Assembly (NCBI GenBank): GCA_964492935.1
Contig: CAZBLF010000002.1
Span: forward strand, 45,449 to 65,448
Source of the DNA: an uncultured Methanosarcinales archaeon
Lineage (GTDB): Archaea > Nanobdellota > Nanobdellia > Woesearchaeales > JACPBV01
Reading direction: 5' to 3'
DNA length: 20,000 nt
Position numbers: made by a program. Positions 6,001 through 15,000 of this stretch are shown here, piece by piece. Position 1 is the first letter of the stretch, and each line of letters begins with the position of its first letter.

Positions 6001-9000
6001 CGCAGGCTGCCAAATAGCATTAGGCTATCAAGAACGAGCAGAAGAATACGTAAAAGAACTAGCAAAAGAATTGAAAGACCCCTTCCTAGCACCCTGTGAT
6101 ATGGTTGCAGACGAATTCATAGAAAACTTCTTTGAAAAAGTAGAAAAAGAATTCGGAAAGTTCGATTTCTTAATCCATTCAGTAGCCTTCGCAAAGAAAG
6201 ACTACTTGCAAGGAAAATTCTACGAAGTGCCTCGTAGAGCCTACAACACTGCTCAAGAAGTCTCAGCCTATTCACTTACCGCCATCACCAGAGAATCCGT
6301 AAAGAGAAAACTGCTCAACAAAGACGGAGCAATCCTGAGCATGACCTATCTAGGAAGCGTAATGGCCGTACAAAATTACAACGTCATGGGTGTAGCAAAA
6401 GCAGCCCTTGAATCCATTACCCGCTATCTAGCAATGGATCTAGGCGAGAACGGAATCAGAGTGAATGCAATCTCCGCCGGCCCCATCGCAACGATGGCCG
6501 CATCTGGCATCACCGGATTCGAAGACATTCTAAAACACGCAGAAAAGAAAGCACTCCTTAAAAGAAACATTAGCGCAGAAGACGTCGGCAATACCGCCCT
6601 CTTCCTCTGCAGCGACATGAGCAAGAACATCACCGGCCAAGTAATCTATGTAGATGCTGGATATAGCGTTAATGGATTATAATCATGGAACCAGGACTTC
6701 AAGACAAGTTAATCACAATGCAGCCAGATGTAAAACTGACTTCACTGGCAGACGCACTTAGCGAAGTAGCCGAACTGACAAAGTCAGGCAGTATTGATGA
6801 AGTCCTTGATGCCATGACTAAAATAGCGCCCATTCAGCCCCATCTCACGAGCGCATTGAATAAAAAGCCATGATTAGCAGTATTAGGACAAGCCGGAAAG
6901 ATTTTTAGAGCATATGGGACTCTCGTGAAAGCAGATAAAAAATACGCTGAATCAACCAAAGGCTATAATGCACACATAGCACACCGCCAGAATTATCCTG
7001 AAATACCTCAAGCAGTGATGGATCAATTCATGCAGGCGATGTCAGCGAAGAGAAAGTATCATGACTTCATCGTAGCCATGATCGATGGACAAGAGATTAT
7101 TTCTGGATCCTCTGGACCGGATTTCTGGGCGGCTAAGAAGAAGGTAGAGGGTTCAGTAGGGATTGTATCTCCTACCTCATTTATGGCATACCTCATAAGA
7201 GGGAAAGGAGACCCTCCAATCTACAATCGTCTTGATTCAGACGGCCAACCAGTAACTCCACCACCACACCCAACCAAAACCTAAGACATAACCATTCTCA
7301 AACAACAATATTTATAAAGCATTTCAGAGTCTATCTTATTTTTGAGATGACGTTACGATTTTCACCCAATCCCATTCTAAAGTTCGTTCTAAACATCTCT
7401 ATTTCTGACGTAAGGAGGCTACAATGTACGCAGTTCTAGCCCTCAAAGACGGAACTATTTTTGAAGGCAAAGGCTTCGGTGCTATTAAAGAAACCGCCGG
7501 CGAAGTAGTCTTCAACACCTCCCTCGTCGGCTATGAAGAGTCACTTACCGACCCCTCTTACAAAGGCCAGCTCCTAACACTAACCTATCCGTTAGTAGGA
7601 AATTACGGCGTAAGAAAAGAACATTTCGAATCAGACAAAATCCAGGTGCAAGGATTTATCGTACGCGAGTTCCAGGAACACCACGCCCATAAAGACGCAA
7701 CCAAAACCATTCACGAATTTCTAAAGGAACACAATATTCCAGGCATCTCAGATATCGACACCCGTATGCTTACAATCAAAATCAGAGAGCACGGAGTCAT
7801 CAATGGTTGCATAAAAACCAGCGACAAACCCATAGACACCGCAGCATTAGTAAAAAAAGCAAAAGAGCTAGATGACTACGGAGAAAAGAATCTCCTACCA
7901 GAAGTTTCTGTTCGCGCCCCCGAGTTCATCGATGCAAAAGGAGAAAAAACAATCGCCATGATCGACACCGGAGTTAAACTTTCAATCATCAGAAATTTCA
8001 CGAAAAGAAAAATTAACGTTTGGAGATTTCCCTACAACACTACAGCAAATGAAATAAGAGAAAAGAACGTACAAGGACTCTTCATCGCCAACGGCCCAGG
8101 CAATCCAGAACAAGCAACAGAAGCAATCGAGGCAGTAAAACAACTAAAGGAAGAACTCCCCATCACCGGAATCTGCCTAGGAAATCAGATAGTTGCTTTA
8201 GCATTAGGCGGAAAAACCTACAAATTAAAGTTCGGCCACCGTGGAACAAATCAACCGGTAAAGAATATCAAAGAAAACAAAGTCTACATAACGAGCCAGA
8301 ACCACGGATTCGCCGTAGACAAAGAATCACTACGCAACACAGACTTAGAAGTCTCTTATATCAATCTCAACGATGGCAGCGTAGAAGGAATGCAACATAA
8401 ATCTCTACCCATCCAAACCGTCCAGATGCACCCCGAAGCGAATCCCGGACCGCAGGATACAAACGGATTTTTTGATGACATAGTGAGGAATCTAAAATGA
8501 CCCAAGCGATGCCCAATAACAACACTCTTCATCAAGCTAACAACAGTTTTAAGAACTTCAATATTCCAATAATAGGCAATCTTATGAATAATGAACTTAA
8601 ACCAAATGAATCTGAGATGAAAGAAATACATTTTTGGGAGCTTCCAGACACAGTCAGATTGAGATTAAATCTTGAATCTTTACATCATCTATTCAAATCC
8701 TCTGATCCAGTGAGTACAGCGGAGAGGTTGGGGATATCGAAATCATATCTAAACCATTTGAAGAATGGCAGGCACGCAATAAAGCCCTCTCAACTACTAA
8801 TCCTTACGAGGCTTTTTGAGAAAGACCCCTTAGAAGTAGAGAAGCAAATAATTTCGATGAACTCAACTCGAGGAGGGCAAGCAAGATGCACGTTACCAAT
8901 CGGGCAAATGAAGAAATTGCCTCGCTGATAGGCCATTACTATGGAGATGGAAGCATCATTACAAAAAAGCCCCAGTTCAAATTTTGCAATTTTGATAAGG

Positions 9001-12000: not shown

Positions 12001-15000
12001 CTCGTAGACAAGTACCTAGCAAACGCACTAGAACTTGATGTAGATGCATTGTGCGATGGCAAGCAAGTCTATGTCGCAGCCATCATGGAGCACATCGAGG
12101 AAGCCGGCGTACACTCCGGAGATTCAGCCTGCGTCATCCCTCCACAAAGCCTTAAACCAGAAGTCAAACAAAAAGTCATCGACTACACCAAGAAACTAGC
12201 TCTAGCTCTCAAGACAATTGGATTAATCAATATCCAATATGCAGTAAAGGATGACGTCGTCTATATTCTAGAAGCAAATCCTCGTTCATCAAGAACCATC
12301 CCCTATGTCAGCAAATCCATAGGAAAGCCCATGGCAAAAATTGCAACCCAGGTACTTCTTGGAAAAACCCTAGACGAACTAAATCTAGGAGACTATACCG
12401 AACCCACCTTCACCACCGTCAAGCAAGTCGTCTTTCCCTTTCTTAAATTACAGGGAGTTGATCCCATACTAGGACCAGAAATGAAATCCACCGGAGAGGT
12501 CATGGGAATAGATACCTCCTTCGGCAAAGCCCTCTTCAAAGGCTTCGAAGCAGCCCAGATGAAACTGCCGAAGCAAGGCAACATCATGGTTGCAATCGGA
12601 AGAGATGACCACAAAGAACAAGCCGTGGACTGGGCAAAAAGCCTAATCGAGATGGGCTTCAAGCTCTTTTGCACACCCGGAACGCGAGACGTCTTCATCA
12701 AGCACAACATCCCTTCAACCACCGTACCCAAAATCAGAGAGGACCCCATGATACTTGACATGATGAAGCGCAACCAAATTCATATGGTGATCAACCTCCA
12801 TCGCGGCTCCCATCCAAGAACCGACAGCTACACCATAAGACGAAAGTGCATAGAATTAAACATCCCTCTACTAACACGAATGCCCACCGCAAAAGCCGCA
12901 ATAAAAGCAATCACTTCGATGAAAGACCAAGAGTATGATGTAAAGTCGCTGCAAGCCTTTTACGCAGACTGACACACACCACAATTTCTCAAACAAAAGA
13001 CTAACACATAAAAACAAACCCTAATTAACTCACCACTTCGTGACGAAAAAACCTATACAACTACTTGAAAAGCCGAAAAATATTGACGGAAAGCATTTAA
13101 GGGAGTAACACACTCCGTATTTTCCCAGTCATTCTGAAATCCATACTCAAGCGGTGATTTCAAATGAAAAAAGAAAAAAACGAAAACAAAAGTGTCCTTT
13201 ACGATGGGCTTTCTCGCCGAGAAATTATTGGCGCTTGGAAGAACACAATGGACACCAGAAAGAAGACTGGACTTGGACAGAGAGAGCTAGCGAGGCTTCT
13301 ACTAACTGAGCACCAACTAGAGATCTCAGAAAGCACTATATCGGGATGGATTCATAAGCATGTTGTTCCCTTTGCGCAAGAGAAAACACAATTCAAACCA
13401 AAACCTATTCCTCCAAAAAAGGTGCTCGAAAAGCTGTATATCCACAATCAGAAAAGTGCAAGCACGATCGCAAAGAAGTTCCATGTGTCTACAATTATTG
13501 TTATCAATTGGCTGAAAAAATACGGGGTCCGAGTAAGATCTCACACAGAATCCATGAATACAAGTATTATCCAGAGCGTATTAAGGGATCAAAAAGTGAC
13601 TAGGCCCACCAGAGAGTATGGTAAGCTCTCTCCCGAAAAGGCATATATTCTTGGAGTACTCTGCGGCGATGGATACATCGATCATAAATTCATGAAGCTC
13701 GAGATTAGAAGAGACCTTGATTTTATGAACGAATTCATTAGATGTGTTGAGGAGGTATACGGTTTACGATACAAGCACTATTACTACAAGCACAGAAATA
13801 GCTATATTGTGAACGTGAACGCTCAAATTATTTGCAAAGATTTACTCAACCACGACACCTTCCGAACTCGAACATGGAGAGTCCCTAAAGCAATATCTGA
13901 ATCAAAGAGCAAGGGAGTGGTGAGCCATTTCCTAAGAGCACTCTTTGACAGCGATGGTTCTTCTAGTGGATCAACCGTAAACATGACGCTTGCGAATGGA
14001 AGTGCATTAAGAGAGGTATCGTCGCTTCTTACAAAACTAAACATTTCCAATAGGGTGAAAACTCGAAGCCCTTACAGCACACTAACGATATCACATAAGG
14101 ACAACCTAAGAAAATTCATAGAAGAAATCGGATTCACCATTCAAAGAAAAAATGATAGAACCAAAAAATACATACAACACGGACGAAGAGCTGTACGGTC
14201 TTTTGCACCCCATAGTCAAAAAGTGGTTTAAGAGGAAGTTTAAGACGTTCGCGAAAGCCCAGAAATGCGCGATAATGCCAATCCATAATCGCGAGAACGT
14301 GTTAGTTTCATCTCCAACCGGATCCGGCAAAACGTTAACAGCATTCATGGCCATTCTCAACGAATTAGTAGACTCCTCGGAAAAGAACATTCTTGAGGAT
14401 AGAGTTTATGCTGTTTACATAAGTCCGCTTAAGGCACTTTCTTCAGACATCCACCACAATCTCATCGAACCCCTAGAAGAGATGGAAAAATCCGCAAAGA
14501 AAGAGCTCAATATCAGAGTTGGTGTACGAACCGGCGACACCACCCCCTACCAACGATCAAAGATGCTCAAGAACCCGCCCCACATTCTCATCACAACGCC
14601 AGAATCCCTAGCTATCTTAATCTGCTCCCCAAAATTCCAGGAACATCTCAAAAAAGTAGAGTGGTTTATCTTAGATGAAGCCCACGCCATCGCAGAAAAC
14701 AAGCGAGGAGTCCACGCATCTATCGTCATGGAACAACTCTCCCAACTCTCTCCCCACATGTGTCGCATCGGATTATCCGCAACCATCTCACCACTCGAAA
14801 AGATAGCACATTTCCTTGTCGGTAACGATAAGGGTAAACCAAGACCTTGCAAATTAGTAGATGTGCAATACCTCAAAGAAATCGACCTCAAAGTCATGTC
14901 ACCCGTCAAAGATCTCATTGGCGTCGAGCACACCTTAATGCACAACTCCATGTACAAGTTAATTAACAAATTAGTACAAGACCACAAGACAACCCTAATC

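Follow-up and report, generated by a model that had tools for sequence, protein, structure and literature searches.

A candidate tRNA-type intron in the archaeal carB mRNA and its association with free-standing homing-endonuclease genes

Introduction

Archaeal tRNA and rRNA genes contain bulge–helix–bulge (BHB) introns, and some of the rRNA introns encode LAGLIDADG enzymes such as I-DmoI. Collaborative homing was reportedly first described by Zeng et al. in 2009. In the example given in excerpts of one account, the free-standing endonuclease F-CphI is encoded next to a group I intron that lies in cyanophage psbA; this intron interrupts the target of the enzyme and the enzyme makes the intron mobile (PMC6083498). 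Among protein-coding genes of archaea, an intron is described in the cbf5 pre-mRNA of Thermoproteota, namely Aeropyrum, Sulfolobus, and relatives (excerpts of PMC2738675). This was the only earlier case of an archaeal mRNA intron that we found in the literature.

Here we analyze a stretch of 20,000 nt of contig CAZBLF010000002.1 (the window; all coordinates are positions within it) from a genome designated G000, in which carB, the gene of the carbamoyl-phosphate synthase large subunit, is interrupted by 20 nt at 9825–9844. Judging from sequence and modeled folding, we consider it probable (roughly 0.78) that this insert is an archaeal BHB (tRNA-type) intron which is spliced from the carB mRNA. 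By sequence comparison the insert belongs to a family of candidate mini-introns without ORFs, which occupy two carB sites in Woesearchaeota-type DPANN archaea.

Results

Reading frames of the interrupted carB gene

The survey's finding had described a 20-nt insert with two stop codons 76 nt after the start of carB, the removal of which restores the conserved frame exactly, and the reading frames agree with this (Table 1). The exon 1 frame is open from ATA 9749 as far as 9824; past the break it reads TAT CCT TAA TAG, and the conserved continuation from Phe onward starts at 9845 in another frame. Excising exactly 9825–9844 restores Glu-Phe-Asp-Tyr (E-F-D-Y), whereas moving the deletion by +1 or +2 gives E-Y-D-Y instead. 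Of three frame-restoring registers, the one at 9825–9844 alone has all four pairs of the central helix.

An Ile start codon behind a Shine–Dalgarno sequence had also been described. The TGA inside the Shine–Dalgarno-like GGAGGTGA is an in-frame stop two codons ahead of ATA, and ATA is the only start-like codon between this stop and the conserved PKR of carB. The same arrangement is found in G011 (ATC) and G007 (ATT). It is a caveat of the intron reading that carB would need to start at ATA. Alternatively, CarB could be made without its first 54 residues from ATG 9931, which opens an uninterrupted ORF of 1013 aa with matches to Pfam CPSase_L_D2, D1, D3, and MGS, and exon 1 would then be a dead remnant. 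We regard this as highly improbable because the protein would lose the invariant GSG...IGQA.EFDYSG block, which all homologues seen have kept, and because exon 1, like the 23-nt micro-exon of alleles with two introns (see below), is in frame and conserved.

Table 1. Features of the carA–carB region of the window (a slash within a bulge marks the predicted cut)
Feature	Position	Strand	Basis or remark
carA (carbamoyl-phosphate synthase small chain)	7424..8500	+	Pfam CPSase_sm_chain 4.7e-53, GATase 4.1e-47
HEG-A N-terminal piece (helix-turn-helix)	8497..8928	+	Pfam HTH_3 2.4e-5
HEG-A nuclease core, double-motif LAGLIDADG and C-terminal winged-helix tail	8886..9782	+	Pfam
Shine–Dalgarno-like GGAGGTGA	9735..9742	+	Sequence inspection; 3′ end six nt before ATA
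carB predicted exon 1	9749..9824	+	76 nt = 25 codons + 1 nt, from ATA
Exon-side 5′ strand of the motif	9806..9822	+	MFE/centroid fold; by-rule parse
5′ bulge A-U/A	9823..9825	+	Predicted cut 9824/9825; register as in tRNA-His of G000
Candidate 20-nt mini-intron	9825..9844	+	Frames, fold, by-rule parse, homologous inserts
3′ bulge A-G/U and outer-helix 3′ strand	9843..9858	+	Fold; predicted cut 9844/9845
carB predicted exon 2	9845..12972	+	Through stop codon; remainder of the 1,067-residue large subunit

Predicted fold and splicing enzymes

The BHB motif, previously reported as the minimum-energy fold, was both the minimum free energy (MFE) and the centroid structure in our RNAfold calculation (−15.7 kcal/mol, 42% of the ensemble), with a z score of −2.0 and 7 of 200 shuffled sequences folding equally well. 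In the carB transcript the exon sequence CUGA (9819–9822) would pair with the intron sequence UCAG (9839–9842) to form a central helix of 4 bp. Each strand would be followed by a 3-nt bulge, and the core would be flanked by the intron hairpin and an exon–exon helix. Further upstream, the 5′ strand comprises AUCGGA 9806–9811 (the distal outer helix), AG 9814–9815, and CG 9817–9818; the outer-helix 3′ strand comprises CG 9846–9847, CU 9849–9850, and UCCGGU 9853–9858. Within the insert, 9826–9829 pair with 9834–9837 around the loop 9830–9833, and the extra A 9838 is followed by the central-helix strand and the first two nucleotides of the 3′ bulge. The motif is relaxed, with one unpaired A (or 1-nt bulge) between the intron hairpin and the central helix and with an outer helix which beside the 3′ bulge has only 2 bp before a mismatch. 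The tRNA-His gene of the same genome, cited earlier as a control, does contain an intron of 15 nt, and its motif is canonical; the tRNA genes of G000 carry similar BHB mini-introns of 15–27 nt.

According to this model, the tRNA-splicing endonuclease EndA would cut each bulge between its second and third nucleotides and RtcB would ligate the exons, whereby the EFDYSG-type motif and full-length CarB would be regained. G000 encodes both EndA (99.8 bits) and RtcB (575.7 bits). The sole EndA found is a single-domain alpha-type protein which does not have the 6-residue insert of the Nanoarchaeum equitans alpha subunit, and a second subunit was not found in this genome (84.8% complete). Cleavage of relaxed motifs has been tied to specific loop inserts (excerpts of PMC5829648).

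Selection on carB

The carB gene of G000, exon 1 included, is under strong purifying selection. In comparison with the sister species G001 we obtained dN 0.061 and dS 1.13 (dN/dS ~0.05 over 1041 codons), and in exon 1 itself 22 of 23 aligned residues are identical at a pS of 0.78 (saturated) and a pN of 0.047. This bears on the explanation that the 20 nt inactivate the gene, carB being a pseudogene with, for example, a repair scar at an endonuclease cut, or that they are an assembly error. Such a reading would fit the shifted frame with its two stops, the gene caller opening carB 54 codons late, and the draft state of the assembly (57 contigs). We consider it very unlikely in view of the selection on both exons and the finding that a genome search detected no other carB in G000; moreover, 33 independent alleles from many assemblies have both exons open and share one fold with differing sequences.

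Distribution of carB inserts

The survey had searched for more copies without success, but many are present in other families of the same order. In Woesearchaeota-type DPANN archaea we identified 33 alleles of carB that are interrupted. Our order-level sample of 401 genomes yielded 101 with a carB N-terminus, 14 of which were shortened matches; all 12 shortened genes that were fetched are interrupted, as are those of G000 and G011. A phylum sample added 2, a scan of genome contigs 14, and metagenome contigs 3 further distinct alleles. The inserts lie at the Glu/Phe codon boundary occupied in G000 (29 inserts) or at a second site 24 nt upstream (13 inserts), both within the most conserved N-terminal motif of carB. 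Where both sites are filled, a 23-nt micro-exon remains in between, in frame and conserved. Insert lengths range from 17 to 42 nt and the distribution within families is patchy.

As noted before, the sister species has an uninterrupted gene and G011, of another genus, has a 23-nt insert at the same position with identical flanks and a different hairpin. G000 and G011 are 88% identical within ±30 nt of the site and 66% identical gene-wide. Kin alleles are not independent of each other, and the flanks they share may have been inherited with the cassette from a common ancestor instead of being kept by selection for structure.

Agreement of motif and reading frame

We scored 32 inserts by a BHB rule (a hairpin of 4 bp or more and the inner three central-helix pairs). 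In the two batches 17 of 18 and 13 of 14 inserts pass, so that 30 of 32 conform at exactly one frame-restoring register; in the two exceptions all four central pairs are formed and the hairpin has 3 bp. Ten other inserts stand outside this scoring, eight of them parsed by pattern or eye (from L090, L098, L101, L102, G597, and G582); the Glu/Phe-site inserts of L101 and L102 enter the pair table only. The rule is loose, with a background of ~0.0016 per (p,q) pair or 10–35 chance matches per 260 nt across 49 lengths, and the argument therefore rests on the match with the frame-restoring register and not on the motif alone.

The pairing itself is retained despite sequence change. Among 25 distinct inserts at the Glu/Phe boundary central-helix pairs 2–4 are kept in all and pair 1 in 22, and hairpin pairs one to three are always formed. 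The central pairing varies between GGCG with CGCC, CGCT, or CGTC, GGTG with CACC (G283, G582), GCCG with CGGC (L077), and CTGA with TCAG (G000, G011). In all nine alleles tabulated for the upstream site, G·A or G·G takes the outermost position of the central helix. Most alleles have little helix immediately outside the 3′ bulge. Exon–exon pairing across the site is stronger in intron-bearing than in other alleles (median −15.9 kcal/mol, n = 26, versus −10.6 kcal/mol, n = 43; Mann–Whitney p = 1.2e-7). Of the intron-bearing alleles 11/26 have the codon pair ATCGGA/TCCGGT, versus 1/43 others, and the synonymous codons forming the outer-helix pairing of G000 are common to G011 and enriched in intron-bearing alleles.

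A tolerated peptide insertion was ruled out because the insert lengths fall in all three phases and many inserts contain stops. The insert could also be kept in the mRNA and be bypassed in translation, either by a programmed −1 frameshift or by ribosome hopping of the kind known from T4 gene 60. A hairpin after the break and stops close behind it, both of which occur at translational bypass sites, would be compatible with this, yet there are no matching take-off and landing codons (0/25 Glu/Phe inserts end in a Glu codon) and G000 lacks a slippery heptamer ahead of the stops. After a frameshift the invariant EFDYSG motif would contain 7–8 foreign residues. In G011 the target frame itself contains stops, and the needed phase change varies by allele because the lengths span all three phases. 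We therefore attach hardly any weight to bypass. The register, the shared architecture of 29 Glu/Phe-site inserts with different, compensatory sequences from different lineages, the purifying selection, and the encoded EndA and RtcB instead support the tRNA-type intron proposed by the survey, as far as sequence data can indicate.

Homing-endonuclease genes next to carB

The reported LAGLIDADG gene between carA and carB is confirmed, with two ORFs (HEG-A, Table 1) lying outside the mini-intron, ~40 nt upstream. Its first ATG overlaps the carA stop as ATGA and its 3′ end overlaps exon 1 by 34 nt. The core scores 26.5 bits with Pfam LAGLIDADG_3, where 22.5 is the cut-off, also matches HTH_11, and is 57% identical to the G011 homologue; the N-terminal piece has 39.6% identity (tblastn) to G011 residues 4–141. 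Both LAGLIDADG motifs and the acidic residues are invariant in an alignment of five sequences. Compared with the single 366-aa ORF of G011, the G000 gene is split by a −1 frameshift (~8905–8915) and may therefore be decaying. The two ends of the 1.25-kb endonuclease cassette showed no BHB pairing by which the whole cassette could be a single large intron.

The co-occurrence with the insert, claimed from few genomes, extends to all 19 carB-adjacent HEG-A genes, each of which lies upstream of a carB with a Glu/Phe-site insert. A second family, HEG-B, consists of 'homing endonuclease associated repeat' proteins; its well-matched members (at least 42% identity over most of the query) adjoin an upstream-site insert in seven of seven cases. 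Of the intact carB N-termini, 38 are preceded by at least 1 kb of sequence, and neither family was present at any of these. Restricted to genomes with G handles, an endonuclease gene accompanies 10/15 interrupted versus 0/38 intact genes (Fisher p ~1.5e-7, a value that ignores kinship).

Possibly the intron is real and its link to the endonuclease merely physical. An endonuclease cassette would home to the carA–carB junction or another site, and the mini-introns, protecting no target, would be dragged along by co-conversion because they are 60–90 nt away. Five intron-bearing alleles have no upstream endonuclease gene (G368, G262, G396, G283, G582), a diverged, split HEG-B (G040/L103) stands beside a Glu/Phe-site insert only, and HEG-A and HEG-B have an N-terminal module of ~50–100 aa in common which might bind one shared site. 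Passive hitch-hiking, however, predicts no such pattern as the specificity of the two families for sites only 24 nt apart, and among the alleles compared no endonuclease gene lies beside an uninterrupted cognate site. We judge this explanation unlikely, though it deserves serious consideration.

Discussion

By analogy with the phage system, we lean slightly toward collaborative homing by a free-standing endonuclease whose target is split by a BHB intron. The LAGLIDADG endonuclease would recognize the uninterrupted Glu/Phe site in genomes without the element; in its own genome the intron would divide the site, which would therefore escape self-cleavage. Repair of a cut intron-less allele would copy the endonuclease gene, exon 1, and intron together. 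If true, a BHB intron would here take the part that a group I intron has in the phage system of collaborative homing, and the co-travel of mini-introns with homing-endonuclease genes hints at how such introns may spread.

Relative to archaeal tRNA and rRNA introns, the carB insert is alike in the motif and in the predicted cut positions (as in tRNA-His of G000). It is similar in size to the tRNA mini-introns of G000, and its neighboring endonuclease is of the same LAGLIDADG family as those of rRNA introns; the endonuclease gene, however, lies outside the intron and the host gene is protein-coding.

The carB insert resembles the cbf5 intron, as described in excerpts of PMC2738675, in being a short ORF-less element of an archaeal protein-coding gene, in having a BHB-like motif formed from exon and intron, in being cut by the tRNA-splicing endonuclease (for carB, a prediction), and in being easily missed by gene callers. 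Whereas cbf5 codes for an RNA-modification enzyme of Thermoproteota, carB codes for a metabolic enzyme of DPANN archaea, has two insertion sites, at times both filled to leave a micro-exon, and carries introns patchily within families. The carB introns are consistently partnered with free-standing endonuclease genes, and these excerpts report no such partnership for cbf5.

The locus is like that of F-CphI and psbA, as portrayed in excerpts of PMC6083498, in that a conserved gene contains an intron without an ORF and a free-standing endonuclease is encoded beside it. The psbA intron is a self-splicing ribozyme of a phage, whereas the carB element is a candidate protein-spliced BHB mini-intron of 17–42 nt in an archaeon, and its partner enzymes are LAGLIDADG and 'homing endonuclease associated repeat' proteins with a predicted target.

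The interrupted reading frame of carB

In a three-frame translation the conserved N-terminus of CarB is read in one frame from the ATA at 9749 to position 9824; TAT CCT TAA TAG follows directly, and the conserved continuation is found in another frame. Excision of 9825-9844 gives Glu-Phe-Asp-Tyr (E-F-D-Y) and a complete carB frame, the cuts falling after the second nucleotide of each of two bulges. When the 20-nt deletion is moved 1 or 2 positions downstream, Tyr replaces Phe and structural support is absent. The survey's finding of a 20-nt insert which breaks the frame and whose removal repairs it is therefore borne out by the translation and the deletion. 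The coordinates and other statements of the survey are correct as far as they were checked. The sister species (G001; G and L numbers are our handles for genomes and fetched loci) has indeed an uninterrupted carB, and the 23-nt insert reported from another genus (G011) shares its position; its flanks are identical and its hairpin differs. The assembly of the source archaeon (G000) is a draft of 1.15 Mb in 57 contigs and is 84.8% complete.

Features of the carA-carB region and free-standing LAGLIDADG genes of the source archaeon (window positions unless a contig, C, or fetched locus, L, is named)
Feature	Position	Remarks
carA	7424-8500	followed by two overlapping ORFs, then carB
HEG-A, N-terminal piece	8497-8928	HTH_3; ORF overlaps the next
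HEG-A, core	8886-9782	LAGLIDADG_3 (26.5 bits, cut-off 22.5) and HTH_11; own ATG
carB exon 1	9749-9824	
carB putative mini-intron	9825-9844	20 nt
carB exon 2	9845-12972	
carB Pfam domains		start within the ORF from 9931
second LAGLIDADG_3 gene	13164-14231 (+)	53 bits, 355 aa; N-terminal HTH-like part
Lhr-type helicase gene	14152-16737	start overlapped by 80 nt
LAGLIDADG gene	L105:330-989 (C1)	40 nt downstream of tRNA-Asn
LAGLIDADG gene	L106:225-1073 (C16)	abuts tRNA-Leu
LAGLIDADG gene	L107:180-821 (C11)	~170 nt from tRNA-Met
LAGLIDADG gene	L108:191-937 (C2:42290-43036)	overlaps tRNA-Gln, antisense

A gene with such an insert might be a pseudogene, or CarB might be translated from a downstream start. 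Between the source archaeon and the sister species exon 2 has a low dN (0.061) relative to dS (1.13), and in exon 1 22 of 23 residues are identical despite a pS of 0.78; a second carB was not found in the genome of the source archaeon. Since both exons are conserved and the gene is the sole copy, the pseudogene and the downstream start are ruled out. Two carB copies, both with uninterrupted N-termini, are present in some members of the family, namely G009, G003 and G005 (L004, L009, L008/L023); those of G009 and G003 lie in tandem on one contig, the second copy being ~50% identical.

At the position where relatives have the ATG start codon, carB has an Ile codon in G000 (ATA, 9749-9751), G011 (L006; ATC) and G007 (L011; ATT). 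These codons are found 2-3 codons past an in-frame TGA, itself part of a strong ribosome-binding site resembling GGAGGTGA or GGGTGGGTGA; GTG or ATG is the start codon of other cassette-bearing alleles. Two additional introns which would produce an ATG were rejected. For a single large bulge-helix-bulge (BHB) intron containing HEG-A, the LAGLIDADG endonuclease gene between carA and carB, we scanned the cassette ends 8470-8530 against 9720-9765: there were 58 chance 4-bp matches among 2700 pairs, none of them with both flanking helices, no ATG-CCC junction was found and the best duplex had -5.7 kcal/mol. For a third small intron at the carB start the central helix, TAAA against CAAA, is unpaired as judged by eye.

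Predicted structure of the putative splicing motif

The exon sequence CUGA (9819-9822) forms a central helix of 4 bp with the intron sequence UCAG (9839-9842), and a 3-nt bulge is located 3′ of each strand (AU/A, 9823-9825, and AG/U, 9843-9845; predicted cut at the slash). The insert contains an internal hairpin of 4 bp, and the exon-exon outer helix is discontinuous and terminates in AUCGGA opposite UCCGGU. This fold is both the minimum free energy and the centroid structure (-15.7 kcal/mol, z = -2.0; 7 of 200 shuffles were as stable). The same bulge-helix-bulge geometry is present in tRNA-His of this genome, whose 15-nt intron was described as canonical, rightly so on checking: its outer helix has 7 bp, CTGT is paired with ACAG and the bulges are GG/A and AT/A. 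Measured against a strict hBHBh′ motif, whose helices h and h′ directly adjoin the bulges and each have 2 bp or more, the predicted carB motif is a relaxed form. Helix h consists of 2 bp (CG/CG), a mismatch, 2 bp, an internal loop and 6 bp, and h′ of 4 bp offset by one unpaired A or of 1 bp, a bulge and 3 bp; in most relatives h′ adjoins the bulge directly and h is scant. An Rfam search of 8400-10100 at permissive thresholds gave zero matches.

Insertion sites and covariation in relatives

Using the intact N-terminus of the sister species (aa 1-120) as query, we obtained matches in 101 of 401 genomes sampled from the order, 14 of which start only at residues 11-24; the 12 new genomes among these 14 were fetched and all are interrupted. 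Within the same family the sister species and ten more carB copies are uninterrupted, and at least ten families hold both interrupted and intact alleles. Further interrupted cases are G597 and G582 from a phylum-level sample, and G013 and G005 were used only as uninterrupted comparators. The inserts occupy two sites. The first is the Glu/Phe boundary, with the predicted cut in G000 and G011 1 nt later, between bases 1 and 2 of the Phe codon; the second lies 24 nt upstream, past the first base of the codon after G-S-G-A. Several genes have both inserts, and a 23-nt micro-exon encoding x-K-I-G-E-A-G-E remains between them. The in-frame upstream-site insert of L097, a relative, recurs in several metagenome records. 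A run search with L097:2500-4275 found no RNA run, and four runs from matching samples or studies gave no coverage of it, which speaks neither for nor against splicing.

The inserts are 17-42 nt long and occur in all three phases. Translational bypass of the insert by frameshifting or hopping is disfavoured by the varied insert phases, by stops in the other frames and by the lack of matching take-off and landing codons.

As a formal BHB rule we required the inner three central-helix pairs to be formed and a hairpin of at least 4 bp. By itself the rule is loose (10-35 hits per 260 nt, ~0.0016 per position pair), and a BHB scanner used alone is not discriminating. A genome-wide screen of G000 with a BHB rule and an ORF-joining filter gave 580 candidates. 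carB was among them, most lay at gene boundaries, and sorting them takes homology tests on the joined sequences, so the outcome does not count against further interrupted genes. Of the 1-7 registers that restore the frame of a carB insert, the rule singled out exactly one in 17 of a first set of 18 inserts and 13 of a second set of 14 (30/32); in the two exceptions all four central pairs are formed and the hairpin has 3 bp. At the upstream site the chosen register gives Leu or Ile, the residue usual in intact homologues. For eight of the remaining ten inserts (the upstream-site inserts of L090, L098, L101 and L102 and both inserts of G597 and G582) parsing with a pattern or by eye gave the same layout, with a single T.T mismatch in the upstream-site helix of L102. 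The other two, at the Glu/Phe site of L101 and L102, were entered in the pair table only.

For 25 distinct inserts at the Glu/Phe boundary central pairs 2-4 are formed in all 25 and pair 1 in 22, the other three having G.A; hairpin pairs 1-3 are likewise formed in all 25, with two to four pair types each. Changed exon codons are matched by a changed intron strand: GGCG is partnered by CGCC, CGCT or CGTC, GGTG by CACC (G283 and G582), GCCG by CGGC (L077, where the protein has Ala-Ala-Glu) and CTGA by TCAG (G000 and G011), the GGTG and GCCG helices being compensatory double changes of exon and intron. At the upstream site central pairs 2-4 and the hairpin are formed in 9/9 tabulated alleles, with G.A or G.G as outermost pair in all nine and G.U in two more.

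Pairing of the exons across the Glu/Phe site is stronger in intron-bearing alleles (median -15.9 kcal/mol, n=26) than in the others (-10.6 kcal/mol, n=43; p = 1.2e-7, related sequences not being independent). The synonymous choice ATC-GGA ... TCC-GGT is made in 11/26 intron-bearing alleles versus 1/43, and other lineages use different complementary pairs. Within 30 nt on either side of the site the identity between G000 and G011 is 88%, versus 66% gene-wide; co-conversion or selection for the outer helix, singly or together, could account for this.

Splicing enzymes and tRNA introns

The source archaeon has genes for EndA (PF01974, 99.8 bits, C25) and RtcB (PF01139, 575.7 bits, C27). The EndA is a single-domain alpha-type protein with the N. 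equitans alpha subunit and M. jannaschii EndA as nearest PDB relatives; the short insert of the N. equitans subunit is absent, and tblastn of the 84.8% complete genome with EndA gave no paralogue as second subunit at E<1. According to an excerpt of PMC5829648, several DPANN lineages in which many tRNA genes are disrupted have alpha4-type enzymes; wider EndA specificity is attributed there, tentatively, to loop inserts.

ARAGORN called 33 tRNA genes, 21 of them with an intron, at least two of the 21 being false: 'tRNA-Glu' (C4:3226-4386) and 'tRNA-Leu' (C18:10423-11830) look like false calls. The 1063-nt 'intron' of the former covers an intact NAD-dependent epimerase-like ORF; a nuclease ORF is absent from the 1316-nt 'intron' of the latter. 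In several tRNA genes the intron is a BHB mini-intron of 15-27 nt whose hairpin resembles that of carB.

Endonuclease genes and their association with the inserts

HEG-A has two LAGLIDADG motifs with acidic residues, and its G-D-G and D-D-D-G-S-V columns are invariant in five homologues. It is found upstream of carB in G000, G011, G370, G360 and G330. Compared with the single ORF of G011, the gene of the source archaeon is split by a -1 frameshift at ~8905-8915 (..ATA GGG C..), where no slippery heptamer is present; the gene could be decaying or wrongly assembled, or the two parts could be separate products. A second family, HEG-B, lies upstream of carB in G163, G156, G191 and G597 and, in a split and diverged form, in G040. 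It combines three to four 'homing endonuclease associated repeats' (PF18780, E ~1e-33) with a C-terminal domain that shows a PD..E-x-K-like motif (by eye) and only weak profile matches (Tox-REase-7, DUF7487); searches with this nuclease domain yielded no PDB sequence and, among PHROGs, just one of unknown function.

The two families have an N-terminal stretch of ~50-100 aa in common, ..TGQ..FIN.NSLV..TFKP.F..IIPEK..MNNKQKSNK (L006, L064, L070, L073, L063; L104), which in L104 is joined to a LAGLIDADG core. As they are otherwise unrelated, the shared N-terminus suggests that domains have been shuffled at one locus. In L073 (G156), L097, L099 and L100 the HEG-B frame stays open into carB exon 1, and its stop codon lies within the upstream-site intron, so that an endonuclease made from unspliced RNA would have a tail derived from CarB.

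Scanning contigs with a HEG-A alignment we found 20 loci, in MAGs labelled Woesearchaeota, Nanoarchaeota, Micrarchaeota and Iainarchaeum. In 18 of them carB follows directly, each time with the Glu/Phe-site insert; counting distinct HEG-A genes (four scan loci are genomes already counted), 19/19 stand beside such an insert. A metagenome scan with HEG-B gave nine loci, and all seven distinct HEG-B alleles with at least 42% identity over most of the query carry the upstream-site insert (G163, identical to L096; G156, matched by L097, L099 and L100; G191; G597; L098; L101; L102). Beside an intact carB neither gene was found (0 of 38 N-termini for which 1 kb or more of upstream sequence was available). 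Two loci were uninformative: in L094 a truncated relative of HEG-A is flanked by two intact genes, and in L095 the match is of intein type and lies in an Asgard RNA polymerase. The endonuclease gene is missing from five intron-bearing alleles, as expected if the nuclease decays first. The intron-free G007 (L011) has no recognisable endonuclease; besides the ATT start of its carB it has a small ORF of 74-82 aa in the ~210 nt between carA and carB, which may be a remnant of a lost cassette.

The source archaeon has a second LAGLIDADG_3 gene between carB and the Lhr-type helicase gene (Table). No insert was seen in the N-terminus of Lhr behind it, which is apparently intact. Four more free-standing double-motif LAGLIDADG genes (LAGLIDADG_3, 35-45 bits) adjoin intron-bearing tRNA genes, an adjacency that is far above chance with 33 tRNA genes in 1.15 Mb and suggests that a partnership of nuclease and BHB intron is general in this genome.

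Interpretation

As judged from reading frame, predicted fold and covariation, the identification of the 20-nt carB insert as a BHB intron in an mRNA is well supported. The statistical association of endonuclease and carB intron is strong; as to the mechanism of the putative partnership, it is from the site-specific association only that we infer cleavage of the intron-less carB near the insertion site and immunity of the intron allele. We put it somewhat short of even odds (roughly 0.45) that DPANN archaea harbor a two-part mobile element, made of a free-standing homing endonuclease and a protein-spliced BHB mini-intron which interrupts the enzyme's own target within a gene that is both essential and highly conserved. 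Two unrelated nuclease families would each have recruited an intron at neighbouring carB sites, and the same partnership may act at tRNA genes.

If this is true, it would be the first mechanism shown for the gain and spread of archaeal BHB introns, and these introns could colonise mRNAs whenever a nuclease makes the intron advantageous. The strict pairing with two homing-endonuclease families would offer a testable answer to the old question how archaeal introns without an ORF move. Introns in carB would also explain a systematic mis-annotation, carB being called 54 codons short or a pseudogene in these genomes, which affects metabolic reconstructions of pyrimidine and arginine synthesis in DPANN. 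The small natural BHB cassettes with their mapped context could find use in RNA-circle and splicing tools.

A passage of PMC2738675 describes cbf5 as the first archaeal pre-mRNA intron and places protein-coding BHB introns only in cbf5 of Thermoproteota, and the archaeal portion available from a 2026 review of non-canonical splicing deals with tRNA only. In the literature searched as full text we found no report of a carB intron or of a DPANN mRNA intron. carB would thus be a second, independent and widespread protein-coding case, in a core metabolic gene, and the tRNA-splicing machinery would routinely serve mRNAs in another archaeal superphylum. The pattern of carB introns and endonuclease genes matches the collaborative homing of F-CphI and the psbA group I intron, as outlined in an excerpt of PMC6083498.
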